NCBI GenBank assembly: GCA_035577085.1
Contig: DATLVW010000883.1
Coordinates: forward strand, 1-31,282
Length of the DNA stretch: 31,282 nt
DNA from: Thermoanaerobaculia bacterium
Lineage (GTDB): Bacteria; Acidobacteriota; Thermoanaerobaculia; Gp7-AA8
Direction of reading: 5' to 3'
Within the stretch, counting starts at the first letter, position 1; each line of letters opens with the position of its first letter. Below the pieces are notes generated by a model that did no database searches, was not told the origin of the DNA, and saw only the letters and a program-made list of their open reading frames with translations. Positions 1 through 7,098 of the stretch are shown here, in pieces. A program made the translations under genes and the position numbers.

Positions 1-999
1 CTGGATCGTCAGCGCGATTCCGTGGTCGGCATCGATCACTCTCCAGGCCCTGGTGCAGACATCATTGCCGCACCCTCCCTGCCACTCGTGGTCGTTCGGT
101 GAGACACGGCGAGGATCCTTGGACGTCATCTCGAGCTGGAGTGCGCTCTCTTTGAGGCCGAGCGCCTTCGCCAGCGCGATCTGCGTCTCTACCGATGCCG
201 CGCCCGGTTTGCGGGAGATCACTTCCAGCCCGTCGAGCGGTTGGAGATCATGACGCAGCGCGTAGTCGGCGATGCCCTCGGCCACATCGTGGCGATTGGG
301 GATTGCATCGAGGGGATGGCGATGCAATTCGTTGAGGAGCGCTTTGATCAGCGGCTCCGTATCGCTGTGATAAGGCGGACTCGGGAACCCATCGATGAGC
401 TCTTCCGGCGTTGCTGTCGACGCGCGCGCCGGAAATTCATCGAGGCGCTTCCGTTGCAGCTCGCCGCGCAGCGCTCGATAGTCAGCAAACCTGCCATTCG
501 ACACTGCCAGCGCGATCAACGGCCCGATGCCGTCCGCCGTCTGCGGGCCGTTCCTCCGGAGATAGGAAAGATCGCCCGTCAGCTCGAAAATGGGCCCGGC
601 CATCCGTCCGAAGACCGCCGGATCGTGCAGGAGTCTGGCGTATGCCGAAAGAACGTCGCGCTGGTCCCGCTCCGGCAATTCCGCCCAGTGGAAGAACCCC
701 GCACGGGCAAAGGCATTCGGCGGATCTTTGCGCTCCGGCGCGAGGCGCGTGGCGTGATCGTAGGCGGCGTGCCAGAGCATCACGCGCTTGTCCGTTCTGG
801 CGTCGAGCGCGACCTCCGTCAGCGCGCTTGCCGCCGCCCAGTCCGTCGGGTGGTGCGCGATGCGTGTCGCCAGCAGGCGCACGTCCGGCTGCGTTTTCAC
901 GTCGCCCATCTCCGGCGGCCTGACGACAAACGCCGCCGCCGCTGCCAGCATCGTCACGGCCACGGCGATCAGGAGCACGCGCGATCCGAGGATGGTCAC
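1..999 (-). CDS. hypothetical protein with N-terminal signal/membrane anchor (3' end runs off the window)
   Basis: Absent from the ORF track. GTG at 999-997 overlaps the GT4 stop (GTGA). Manual translation begins MTILGSRVLLIAVAVTMLAAAAAFVVRPP and I found no stop before position 1. The 241..1056 + ORF is its antisense shadow. Confidence 0.75.
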   Translation of the reverse strand, partial: MTILGSRVLLIAVAVTMLAAAAAFVVRPPEMGDVKTQPDVRLLATRIAHHPTDWAAASALTEVALDARTDKRVMLWHAAYDHATRLAPERKDPPNAFARAGFFHWAELPERDQRDVLSAYARLLHDPAVFGRMAGPIFELTGDLSYLRRNGPQTADGIGPLIALAVSNGRFADYRALRGELQRKRLDEFPARASTATPEELIDGFPSPPYHSDTEPLIKALLNELHRHPLDAIPNRHDVAEGIADYALRHDLQPLDGLEVISRKPGAASVETQIALAKALGLKESALQLEMTSKDPRRVSPNDHEWQGGCGNDVCTRAWRVIDADHGIALTIQ

Positions 1000-5048: not shown

Positions 5049-5069
5049 TCAGATCTCACCGCGCTTCAC
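5049..5069 (-). pseudogene. N-terminal stub of a MazF/PemK-like toxin (MKRGEI*)
   Basis: GTG overlaps the antitoxin stop (GTGA) and reads GTG AAG CGC GGT GAG ATC TGA, like the usual MxRGEIW start of PemK/MazF toxins. Downstream sequence is not toxin-like. Confidence 0.55.
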
Positions 5070-5287
5070 CTGCGGTCCTCATGACTGAGTGCTGATTCCC
5101 ATTCAGACAGGCCTGCCTCCGTCAGAGTGTTTTCATCCGGACTGGTCTTCGATAAACGGGCAAGGTCCCAGCGCAAAGGATCCGGGCGGCGCACGAGAAC
5201 GATCCCTACGCGCTCACCCGGGCGCAATGGTAGGCGGCGCATCGGACGAAGCACGCCATCATTGAACTCCGCTTCGATCACTTCCAT
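5066..5287 (-). CDS. antitoxin, DUF104/AF2212-like family
   Basis: MEVIEAEFNDGVLRPMRRLPLRPGERVGIVL matches the DUF104 pattern (IEAxxxxGVLxP..L..G..V.I). Start moved to ATG 5287. Confidence 0.8.
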   Translation of the reverse strand: MEVIEAEFNDGVLRPMRRLPLRPGERVGIVLVRRPDPLRWDLARLSKTSPDENTLTEAGLSEWESALSHEDRR

Positions 5288-5361
5288 CCAGTCAAACGGT
5301 AACACGGAAGTTGAGGTTGATAAGGAAAAGGAACGACAGATCGGGCGACTATCGCTGAAAT

Positions 5362-5391
5362 GCGCGGGCGCGCCTTCGGACGCGCCCGCGC
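5362..5391 (-). terminator. GC-rich hairpin downstream of the 189-aa gene (terminator or REP-like)
   Basis: GCGCGGGCGCGCC-TTCG-GACGCGCCCGCGC with only a weak U-tract. A loop-less relative (GCGGGCGCGCCCGC) lies at 5031-5044. Confidence 0.5.
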
Positions 5392-5418
5392 GGACTACTT
5401 CTTACTGCACGACACCAG

Positions 5419-5988
5419 TTACTTGGTCTTCGGATTGGTCGTCGATGACGATGCCGTCACCGCCGAGGTCTCCGTAGTCGTAACCGGGGTTGCCGCCTTC
5501 GGGGCCGGCTTGGACTTGGAATTCCGTCCGCGGCGGCCGAGTGCCTTGCTCATGTCTTCGACATGGGGAAGGAGATCGGCGGTCTCGGGACGCTTGGCCA
5601 GAAGACGCGCCATGGCGTAGGTAGTGAGCGCGGAGCTCCCCACCTCGCTTTTTGCCACGGCCACGCTGTGGCGGACGAAGTGAGCCTGTGCTTCCAGCTC
5701 ATCGGCCACCGGGGCGTAAGCCTCGGCATAACTCGTCCTATCGCGGTCCTGCTCCAGATCCTGGCCGGACTGACGAACGAGTGGCGCGCTGTTTCTGACG
5801 GCAACGGCCGTCAACTCCACGAACTTCTTCGGAACCGAGGCGGTAGCGATCAGCCGCTGGCCGGCCCCTTTGGAAGTGGGAATCACAAGATTCGGAATCT
5901 TCTGCACGATGGCGCGGATCTCTTCGATGCGCGCCTGCGCAGAATCAGTGTGGGACTGCTCAGGTGTAACGGGTACTTCGGTAGACAA
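5419..5988 (-). CDS. hypothetical helical protein (189 aa) with basic/Thr-Ser-rich tail
   Basis: TTG start with strong SD AAGGAG (plus-strand CTCCTT 5995-6000), protein-like composition, followed by a hairpin. No family recognised. Confidence 0.8.
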   Translation of the reverse strand: MSTEVPVTPEQSHTDSAQARIEEIRAIVQKIPNLVIPTSKGAGQRLIATASVPKKFVELTAVAVRNSAPLVRQSGQDLEQDRDRTSYAEAYAPVADELEAQAHFVRHSVAVAKSEVGSSALTTYAMARLLAKRPETADLLPHVEDMSKALGRRGRNSKSKPAPKAATPVTTTETSAVTASSSTTNPKTK

Positions 5989-6025
5989 TGTGTTCTCCTT
6001 TATCTCTCATTGCAAACTGCTGTGA

Positions 6026-6778
6026 TCAGAGCGAGCAGGTTGAAACGAGCGGAGGAGCACGGCCTCGGAAGATCCGTCTTGAAGCCTCGACGACGGTCAG
6101 ACAAACAGACCGTCGACGAGCAGGAATGCAGGGAGCGTCGTTGCTTTCGAACGGGAACCAATTGGGTGGCCGCAGCGGCGGCGGAATCAGCCGGATGGGA
6201 ACGCGCTTACCCGCATTCGCACCCTGCTCCTCGATAGGGATCGCAATGCTGCCGCCCATCACTCCGTCGAACAGCCACGTCGAGGTGTCCTCCAGCCGCT
6301 TGGAAAAAGCGGCCAGTTGTCCAGCGGCCTTCATCCACTGTACGGACACCTCGGCCAGCTTTGCCGGCGCGTCGAGGGCAAGCTCCGGCGACTGCGCCGC
6401 GCGGTTCCTTGTCTTACGCAGACCAGCCGCTGCGCAGTCGAGTTGTTTCAAGGCCCGGTCCAGCCAGCCCGAGGCGATCTGGATCCGGCGCGCTGCCCGG
6501 ATGGGACGCTCTGCCGCCAAACTCTCTGTGGCCTCGATGACGCGGCGGCAGGCGCTGATCAGGTCGAGCGAAGATTCGATGGCCCGCCGCGTGCGCCGGA
6601 ACGGACGAGTCCACGACTTGCGCCGGTCCCGATCCGATCCGCACGAGCGCAGCCCGGCTCGCCGCGAATGGTTCGCGTTCCTTTGGGAGCCGGATCTGTT
6701 CTCTGCGGTTGCCACGTTTTTTTCCTTCACATCTCTTAGACGCATGAGGTTGGCGAAACTCGCTCGTTTTTCGCCCAA
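6026..6778 (-). CDS. Arg-rich hypothetical protein ending in RGRAPP (candidate ribosome-arrest leader)
   Basis: ORF with a helical core and C-terminal RRIFRGRAPPLVSTCSL. Start uncertain: TTG 6778, ATG 6745, or GTG 6715 preceded by AAGGA. Confidence 0.6.
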   Translation of the reverse strand: MGEKRASFANLMRLRDVKEKNVATAENRSGSQRNANHSRRAGLRSCGSDRDRRKSWTRPFRRTRRAIESSLDLISACRRVIEATESLAAERPIRAARRIQIASGWLDRALKQLDCAAAGLRKTRNRAAQSPELALDAPAKLAEVSVQWMKAAGQLAAFSKRLEDTSTWLFDGVMGGSIAIPIEEQGANAGKRVPIRLIPPPLRPPNWFPFESNDAPCIPARRRSVCLTVVEASRRIFRGRAPPLVSTCSL

Positions 6779-6794
6779 TTGTGGAAACTCAGAA

Positions 6795-6842
6795 AAGATT
6801 TTACAAAGATTTTACAAACATAAACACCAATTTTGTCATTTC
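6795..6842 (-). promoter_or_regulatory. AT-rich putative promoter region with 11-bp tandem duplicate
   Basis: AAGATTTTACA twice (6795-6816), giving two TAAAAT hexamers on the minus strand, directly upstream of the RAPP ORF in an otherwise GC-rich context. Confidence 0.45.
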
Positions 6843-6867: not shown

Positions 6868-7098
6868 CCAAAATCTGGCTAACGACAACCAGATTCTGGT
6901 CATCAACAACCAAGTTCCGGTCATCAACAACCAGATTCTGGCTATCAACAGCCAGATTCTGGTCATCAACAGCCAGATTCTGGTCATCAACAGCCAGATT
7001 CTGGTTATCAACAACCAGATTCTGGTTATCAACAGCCAGATTCTGGTTATGAACAACCAGATTCTGGTTATCAGCAACCAGATTCTGGTTAACGACTG
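6868..7098. repeat. 11 tandem copies of a 21-bp unit with an internal palindrome
   Basis: Consensus CCAGATTCTGGT(C/T)ATCAACA(A/G), units starting 6868, 6889 ... 7078. The core CCAGA-T-TCTGG is a dyad. Confidence 0.95.

Follow-up and report, generated by a model that had tools for sequence, protein, structure and literature searches.

A candidate RAPP-type arrest leader with codons complementary to the Shine-Dalgarno sequence of the next gene in a multi-copy Acidobacteriota cassette

Gene Content and Distribution of the A-B Cassette

This analysis concerns two adjacent minus-strand open reading frames (ORFs), ORF A and ORF B, in a 31,282-nucleotide (nt) stretch of Thermoanaerobaculia bacterium DNA (contig DATLVW010000883.1, assembly GCA_035577085.1), the whole of which is referred to as the window. 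A preliminary description had reported here an Arg-rich ORF that ends in Arg-Ala-Pro-Pro (RAPP), and both the minus strand and the ORF list bear out this reading frame and the position of the four codons (Table 1). RAPP lies seven residues ahead of the stop codon, and the same C-terminal placement recurs in all 46 genomic paralogues of A. The longest version of the leader (250 amino acids, aa) ends in ...RRIFRGRAPPLVSTCSL directly before the stop. The gene-caller product and the alignment of homologues point to a GTG at 6715 as the probable start, which refines the earlier estimate of about 230-250 aa to a 229-aa protein whose C-terminus reads ...RGRAPPLVSTCSL. ORF B follows 37 nt past the stop of A (18-54 nt over all 46 cassettes). 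Its coordinates and its TTG start agree with the preliminary description, but such a weak start codon is exceptional in the family, most copies beginning with ATG or GTG.

Table 1. Coordinates of features at the A-B locus of the window
Feature	Position	Strand	Remarks
ORF A, leader	6026..6778	minus	longest ORF, 250 aa, from first TTG
Three-helix bundle of A (predicted, soluble, antiparallel)	6254..6667	minus	residues 17-154 of the 229-aa form; pLDDT >90
Conserved C-terminal segment of A, ~24 residues, RRxR...EAxRR[VI]xRGRAPP	6050..6121	minus	conservation per codon; predicted disordered, pLDDT <50
RGRAPP (CGA GGC CGT GCT CCT CCG)	6050..6067	minus	sole invariant residues of the tail
RAPP codons CGT GCT CCT CCG	6061..6050	minus	read directly from sequence
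Anti-Shine-Dalgarno strand GUG + CUCCU (Arg, Ala and first-Pro codons)	6053..6060	minus	pairs AGGAG..CAC of the ribosome-binding site of B
Proposed arrest site	CCT 6055..6053 in P site, CCG 6052..6050 in A site	minus	geometry from PMC10951233
Inner hairpin (last 7 codons of A, stop in loop, first part of spacer)	6006..6049	minus	conserved as RNA, not peptide
ORF A stop	6028..6026	minus	TGA
Shine-Dalgarno sequence AAGGAG of B	6000..5995	minus	6 nt ahead of start codon
ORF B, 189 aa	5419..5988	minus	TTG start at 5988..5986; ORF list
GC-rich inverted repeat	5361..5394	minus	~25 nt past B stop; read from sequence; weak T-run
Tandem 21-bp repeat array upstream of A	6885..7091		TRF: period 21, 9.9 copies, 90% match

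According to AlphaFold2, run on a 38-row alignment, the predicted bundle of A is preceded by an Arg-rich N-terminus and followed by approximately 75 disordered residues that include the conserved tail. No signal peptide, transmembrane segment or hydrophobic segment is found in A (median maximal 19-aa hydropathy, 1.02), and a fold search with the predicted structure returns generic helical bundles as its sole matches. The predicted B is helical with a disordered tail rich in Lys, Pro, Thr and Ser. A fold search with it yields nothing above background and no Sec/YidC-like fold, and protein atlas matches are restricted to hypothetical Acidobacteriota clusters. Scans against Pfam, NCBIfam and PHROGs name no family for either protein, the only hits being a sub-threshold DUF6439, a dsRBD and one match to a PHROG; the earlier view of B as an uncharacterised gene outside the Sec/YidC machinery holds. 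Prediction of an A-B complex from A(14-165) and B(1-152) gave a score of 0.00, a result that speaks neither for nor against binding.

The two genes recur together as a unit. A, followed by B after an 18-54-nt spacer, is found at no fewer than 46 places, with 3-9 copies of the unit per genome. The genome to which the window belongs contains 8 matches to A and 42 to B, and among 18 congeners A is present in 10, at 6-9 copies per genome, and B in 16; B has more than 540 database matches. Two of the relatives have complete single-contig genomes (G003 and G007), and in G007 there are at least 7 cassettes. Neither gene was found in 22 genomes from other genera of the class, and a survey of 150 genomes sampled from the whole phylum extended the distribution by one genus of the same family. 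Database homologues are soil or peat metagenome proteins, a few of which carry the NCBI label 'Thermoanaerobaculia bacterium' metagenome-assembled genome, and the atlas assigns the family to Acidobacteriota. Judged from this distribution, A is evidently a real protein family, and A and B are real genes of a multi-copy, lineage-restricted cassette.

In the genome of the additional genus (G078), two distant A-like ORFs end in QGRAPPLF and LGRAPPLF, each followed by a stop codon (L061:2077-2100 and L063:2119-2142). Translation identifies the in-frame TGA in each match as the end of the RAPP frame, that is, the stop of the ORF. Both encode the motif by GCT CCT CCT and retain the pairing with the Shine-Dalgarno (SD) sequence around an inner hairpin that differs from that of the window.

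Conservation and Codon Choice of the RGRAPP Motif

The four residues belong to a longer conserved hexapeptide, RGRAPP, which is present in 46/46 genomic paralogues (29-82% identical to the A of the window), 37/37 aligned metagenome homologues and 95/95 database homologues of A; GRAPP is retained in the second genus. Loss of RAPP among homologues had been set beforehand as the outcome that speaks against an arrest leader, and the motif is invariant in about 140 sequences from two genera. Across the 6 x 46 codons of RGRAPP in the genomic copies there are 0 non-synonymous differences, with synonymous differences at all six positions: the first Arg is encoded by CGA (20), AGG (10), AGA (8), CGG (7) or CGC (1), and all four Gly codons are in use. 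A position-by-position comparison of the last 40 codons of A identifies these six residues as the only invariant ones. RGRAPP is under selection at the peptide level. The block ahead of it, RRxR...EAxRR[VI]x, is likewise kept while its third codon positions are free. Variability in the tail peaks directly behind the second Pro, where 11 different amino acids occur. The conserved segment of about 24 residues has the length needed to occupy the exit tunnel of an arrested ribosome, and such a segment, followed by this most variable residue, fits a nascent chain that terminates at an A-site Pro and touches the tunnel.

A second constraint is superimposed on the first. GCT is used for Ala and CCT for the first Pro in 42/46 copies each. 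The backgrounds, taken from the family and from long genomic ORFs, are 11-15% of Ala codons and 6-12% of Pro codons, so that these two codons are also under nucleotide constraint. The CUCCU that they contain is, as described earlier, complementary to the AAGGAG of B. The reading frame through this anti-SD sequence is never shifted in the approximately 140 sequences, though frames shift right after it. A further observation concerns the first Arg codon (6062-6067, together with the Gly codon, and the same codons elsewhere), which is a rare CGA, AGA or AGG in 38/46 copies and has a purine as third base in 45/46. The first-Arg and Gly codons form GAGG or GGGG ending 7 nt ahead of the P-site CCU; this SD-like sequence at initiation-like spacing might stabilise a paused ribosome or compete with the stem by forming a mini-hairpin with the anti-SD, as appears in some of the minimum-free-energy (MFE) structures of individual copies.

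In long ORFs of the same genome, RAPP occurs at an observed/expected ratio of 0.36 and RGPP at 0.17, compared with 1.48 for AAPP, which amounts to a genome-wide avoidance of RAPP. Fujiwara et al. (2025; PMC12992588) reported the same under-representation of RAPP and RGPP across phyla, Acidobacteriota included, RAPP being among the most excluded tetrapeptides in bacteria, and attributed it to the risk of stalling. They found that both motifs cause robust arrest refractory to EF-P in differing N-terminal contexts and occur close to the C-terminal end of small proteins encoded ahead of genes of diverse kinds; 7/7 such proteins of S. lividans arrested translation, including one without a localisation signal.

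A genome-wide list of ORFs with a C-terminal R[AG]PP consists mostly of spurious GC-rich shadow ORFs; one further credible case, on contig C36, was taken up from it. It is a classical-looking, CruR-like upstream ORF of 120 aa (L059:1531-1893, minus strand) with a hydrophobic N-terminus and a CLAC sequence, and it ends in ...DDARGRAPPAC before the stop. The gene that follows after 49 nt encodes an outer-membrane efflux protein (L059:186-1484, minus strand; Pfam OEP, E = 4.4e-56), and its GGAGG is preceded by a C/U-rich stretch.

An RNA Stem Masking the Shine-Dalgarno Sequence of B

When the region 6075..5975 of the window is folded as a single sequence, both the MFE and the centroid structures pair the GUG-CUCCU of the RAPP codons with the AGGAG..CAC of the ribosome-binding site of B, enclosing an inner hairpin. 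Folding of each copy extends this result to the family: 42/46 copies show pairing between the SD and the Ala-Pro-Pro codons with P>0.5 (mean 0.85), and on free mRNA the SD is paired with an overall probability of 0.94. The 0.85 obtained with the native codons compares with an expected 0.30 over all 64 synonymous encodings weighted by codon usage.

Comparative evidence was obtained in several ways. Conventional alignment of 41 spacers (MAFFT followed by RNAalifold) revealed hardly any consensus structure, owing to poor alignment of the intergenic part, and was superseded by folding of the individual copies, an arm-swap test and a covariance-model alignment. In the arm-swap test, which is free of any alignment, cognate arms reach -23.95 kcal/mol compared with -21.02 +/- 0.38 for permuted arms (0/5000). 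The covariance model was built from ten copies and a hand-drawn structure and recovered 39/41 loci; its alignment is fitted to the model, which favours the structure, and in it 91.6% of cells pair versus 83.8 +/- 0.6 for shuffles. Changes that alter both partners of a pair affect 12 of the 19 base pairs in this alignment and 59 cells in all, and the covariation score of 0.243 exceeds those of shuffles (0.114; 0/500) and of slid partners (0.02-0.05). The anti-SD pairing proposed earlier is thereby supported from four sides, namely codon bias, per-copy folding, compensatory changes and the preference for cognate over swapped arms. A co-varying, conserved RNA structure masks the SD of B.

Within this structure, helix 1 is the near-invariant CUCC:GGAG pairing (95.5% paired), in which CUCC comprises nt 2-3 of the first Pro codon and nt 1-2 of the second. 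Compensatory pairs are found in helices 2-4. Helix 2 is the codon directly after RAPP, with compensatory changes at all three of its pairs, which explains why the residue that it encodes is so variable. The inner hairpin of the second genus differs in sequence, but GCU CCU CCU is still paired with the SD. A separate observation is that 14 nt in the loop of the inner hairpin (UCGCUCUGAUCAC, window 6017-6033), including the UGA of A, are at least 90% conserved among paralogues though unpaired; contact with a protein or with rRNA, the termination context or gene conversion could possibly account for this.

These features also bear on whether RGRAPP and the tail might be a functional C-terminal peptide of A, serving in partner binding, sorting or modification and unrelated to stalling. 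A conserved Cys four residues past RAPP (40/46 genomic copies and all 38 aligned homologues) would suit such a role, possibly as a site of modification. However, its UGC codon forms three near-invariant base pairs at the top of the inner hairpin. What is conserved in the tail after RAPP is the nucleotide sequence and not the peptide: five copies read it in another frame, and in the second genus it consists of LF only. No sorting motif in A is matched in Pfam or NCBIfam. Because the tail is conserved as RNA and not as peptide, we regard this explanation as very improbable.

Ribosome Geometry and the Proposed Arrest-Controlled Switch

The distance between RAPP and the ribosome-binding site, which the preliminary description had proposed to compare among homologues, is also kept. 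Counted from where the second Pro codon ends, the start of B is 54-63 nt away in 40/46 copies, irrespective of the stop of A (which falls 12-36 nt past RAPP among copies), and 62 nt away in the other genus; the RAPP-to-start geometry is conserved. If the geometry of a RAPP-arrested ribosome (PMC10951233) is applied to A, the core of the anti-SD falls in the P- and A-site codons. The effect of such a ribosome was modelled by blocking a footprint of nt -12 to +15 around the P site. The probability that the SD is paired then declines from 0.94 to 0.57, and the cost of opening the stretch from the SD to the start codon declines from 8.9 to 5.8 kcal/mol (mean drop 3.1; from 9.7 to 5.1 in the window copy). 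A ribosome modelled 10 codons upstream has no effect (0.93). In this model, a stalled ribosome disrupts the SD-masking stem.

Taken together, ORF A is in our view probably a RAPP-type arrest leader in which the codons of the arrest site also provide the anti-SD; a ribosome stalled on them would keep the ribosome-binding site of B open. In the off state, on free mRNA, the SD of B and the spacer up to the start codon would be held in a long nested stem, whose outer helix pairs the GGAG of the SD with the CUCC of the Pro-Pro codons and whose inner hairpin carries the stop codon of A in its loop. Upon arrest, the anti-SD nucleotides would be inside the decoding centre, and helix 2 together with the first 4-6 pairs at the base of the inner hairpin would be within the mRNA channel and melted. 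With both effects combined, the SD, about 45 nt downstream, would be single-stranded for as long as the stall lasts, allowing 30S subunits to initiate on B. When the stall resolves, termination would follow 7 codons later and the stem would re-form. Peptide-bond formation is the step that stalls in ApdA, ApdP, CruR and the Streptomyces RAPP peptides, and from other RAPP peptides (PMC10951233, PMC12992588) we infer that the motif also arrests the ribosome of this organism. The arrest would be long-lived and would raise the output of B. Arrest-dependent unmasking of an SD has been demonstrated experimentally for SecM, MifM, VemP and uDF_RQH (PMC10987492). 

Several points weigh against this interpretation. 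The fold of the window copy alone is not significant (z = -0.9); the minus-strand fold suggested by the preliminary description does pair the SD with the RAPP codons, at an energy that is not unusual, and since the window by itself is no better than chance, support comes from the family-wide tests. Those tests draw on paralogues, which are non-independent samples and in which gene conversion may inflate nucleotide conservation. The anti-SD constrains the same nucleotides that encode Ala-Pro-Pro and thereby confounds the invariance of these residues, leaving Arg-Gly-Arg as the only part that is cleanly constrained at the peptide level. The switch obtained by modelling is of moderate size, the probability of a paired SD falling from 0.94 to no less than 0.57 and the opening cost by about 3 kcal/mol. 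RAPP arrest varies with species and context, several Streptomyces peptides having stalled Bacillus and Streptomyces ribosomes and hardly those of E. coli (PMC12992588). The sequencing runs that contain the locus are soil DNA metagenomes only, with no RNA runs among them. Finally, A has no export signal of the kind found in most described RAPP leaders and hence no evident release mechanism. As A is cytosolic, pulling by Sec or YidC does not apply, and its predicted bundle, which ends 67 residues ahead of the first Pro of RAPP, is probably too far beyond the tunnel at arrest for its own folding to pull the chain.

The first alternative is that A and B are simply translationally coupled and that no functional arrest takes place. 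Every ribosome that translates the end of A opens the stem for a moment, so that coupling could work in the absence of a long arrest, with the stem masking the SD, Ala-Pro-Pro fixed by the in-frame anti-SD (GCUCCUCC) and Arg-Gly-Arg kept for the function of A. A masking stem and its covariation do not by themselves need arrest, the codon bias reflects a nucleotide constraint on the Ala and first-Pro codons, and in a published system the non-arresting P127A leader still partly opened the stem (PMC10987492). However, the anti-SD could be encoded without RAPP, for example in another frame or by Ser/Leu codons, and yet the frame through it remains unshifted while it shifts directly afterwards. Moreover, Arg-Gly-Arg beside Ala-Pro-Pro is kept through synonymous changes that cross codon boxes, in a segment predicted to be disordered, and RAPP is otherwise avoided in the genome, in line with its reported exclusion from bacterial proteins for stalling. 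In view of these observations, coupling alone appears unlikely.

A second alternative grants the arrest and moves its target. By analogy with CruR, whose C-terminal RAPP prevents Rho-dependent termination ahead of the next gene (PMC9426467), the RAPP arrest of A might act chiefly on transcription or mRNA fate, the lead ribosome shielding the transcript from Rho or nucleases, with SD masking being secondary. Rho could be loaded at the 37-nt spacer and the C/U-rich tail of A. Against this, the spacer is short and purine-rich, a terminator scan gives no intrinsic terminator between A and B, the RAPP-to-start distance is tightly kept, and the feature that co-varies and is conserved is a stem that pairs the SD specifically with the arrest codons. 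As the main mode of action we judge it quite improbable, while the two modes are not mutually exclusive, and an effect through Rho is possible in addition to the proposed unmasking of the SD.

Upstream Repeat Arrays and Neighbouring Features

Arrays of tandem repeats like that of the window (Table 1) lie 80-350 bp upstream of A in nearly every cassette (L017-L056) and comprise 5-17 repeats of 21-22 bp; the period is 20-23 bp in 38 cassettes, and others have dimer units of 42-43 bp. The unit sequence is private to each cassette, and many units contain a short palindrome. An Rfam scan gives only spurious miRNA-like matches on the palindromic array. The similarity of array units correlates weakly with the identity of B (rho 0.26) and not with the bundle of A (rho 0.04), so that A as an array-specific reader is not supported. 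The arrays resemble iteron- or centromere-like binding arrays that co-diversify with B.

Bundles of A that are 91-94% identical are found in cassettes (L047, L050, L040, L051 and others) whose B proteins are only 56-60% identical, which points to shuffling of A as a module, or to its gene conversion, between cassettes. On contig C469 of the same genome, a close B paralogue (291-782, minus strand) is immediately preceded by about 17 tandem repeats of 21 bp and has no A gene, and about 43 more distant B-like genes of this genome are likewise without A, some with tandem repeats upstream. Because the similarity of array units tracks B and not the bundle of A, near-identical A genes adjoin divergent B genes, and the B-only cassette has an array, A looks like an exchangeable or optional regulatory module set between the array and its B gene.

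These features permit a speculative answer as to how the duration of arrest might be set for a cytosolic leader. A could be a cytosolic 'monitoring substrate', the emerged bundle and Arg-rich N-terminus of the nascent chain possibly binding a cassette-specific partner that sets the duration of the RAPP arrest; the partner might be B itself or a nucleic acid such as the private 21-bp array, and each array-A-B cassette would then autoregulate B in cis. In this reading, arrest codons that also act as the anti-SD would be a novel and minimal kind of switch, its switching strand lying in the decoding centre itself. We regard this extension as rather doubtful, and binding of a partner by the emerged bundle as speculation.

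The AT-rich stretch between the array and the start of A (window 6792-6819) contains an 11-bp direct repeat (TTTGTAAAATC, 2.3 copies), and a similar one in rotated form (AATCTTTGTAA, 2.5 copies) is found at the orthologous locus L017. This repeat may serve as a promoter or an operator. No promoter of the sigma-70-like type was called. On the other side of the cassette, the inverted repeat past the stop of B (Table 1) is possibly the cassette terminator and does not appear in the output of the terminator scan. Farther downstream (window 5066-5305, minus strand) lies a 79-aa ORF with an AF2212-like antitoxin-type domain (Pfam PF01954, E = 2.9e-7). Cassette neighbours vary by copy, with HicA/HicB at one other locus and the AF2212-like antitoxin here.

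Comparison with Known Arrest Systems

Recent work has established that RAPP arrest peptides are widespread and located ahead of genes with many different functions; nearly all of those described are leaders that are secreted or reside in the membrane. A shares with ApdA, ApdP and the RAPP/RGPP peptides of S. lividans (PMC7897499, PMC10951233, PMC12992588) an R-A-P-P sequence a few residues before the stop of a protein of less than 300 aa, conservation of the motif in homologues and a co-oriented gene just downstream. It has the sequence traits by which such peptides are recognised, namely a motif no more than about 20 residues from the C-terminus that is conserved while its flanks diverge, with the next gene close behind. 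Most of these peptides contain a signal peptide or transmembrane segments, a typical and not a defining property, whereas A is a predicted soluble three-helix bundle that lacks both. In addition, the gene after A encodes, unlike those following the peptides compared, an uncharacterised helical protein, and the unit occurs in 3-9 copies per genome. No SD-sequestering hairpin has been found for ApcA, ApdA or ApdP; in the A-B cassette, the proposed arrest codons themselves are the anti-SD.

With regard to SecM-secA, MifM-yidC2, VemP-secDF2 and uDF_RQH-secDF2, the proposal for A-B has in common that a near-C-terminal arrest in an upstream ORF opens an SD-sequestering stem-loop, in the present case according to the model, and that the arrest point lies 4-7 codons before the stop. 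In those systems, however, a Sec/YidC gene is located downstream and the anti-SD strand is downstream of or apart from the arrest codons. A is followed by no such gene, has no export signal and no obvious pulling force, and carries its anti-SD in the P- and A-site codons.

CruR of Bordetella pertussis (DUF2946; Roy 2022, PMC9426467) requires its C-terminal RAPP for expression of the downstream gene and illustrates that RAPP leaders can sense something besides secretion, in this case copper; RAPP leaders ahead of non-secretory genes are already known (PMC9426467, PMC12992588). CruR is exported, carries a CxxC sensor at a fixed distance of about 45 residues ahead of RAPP and acts through Rho-dependent termination (PMC9426467), whereas A has an SD-masking stem. 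A falls below the DUF2946 model, its Pfam scan giving only the sub-threshold DUF6439, and the alignment of its homologues contains no conserved CxxC.

What would be new in A-B is the identity of the arrest codons with the anti-SD, the soluble leader and the multi-copy cassette. If the proposed arrest takes place, A-B would be a clear case in which P- and A-site arrest codons serve as the anti-SD, arrest and unmasking then being physically one event, and the soluble nature of the leader raises the question of what cancels arrest without a translocon. The approximately 140 natural variants of A offer a ready-made mutational scan of the tunnel segment, and the multi-copy array-A-B unit in abundant soil Acidobacteriota points to an uncharacterised, lineage-specific gene system whose output is controlled at the level of translation.

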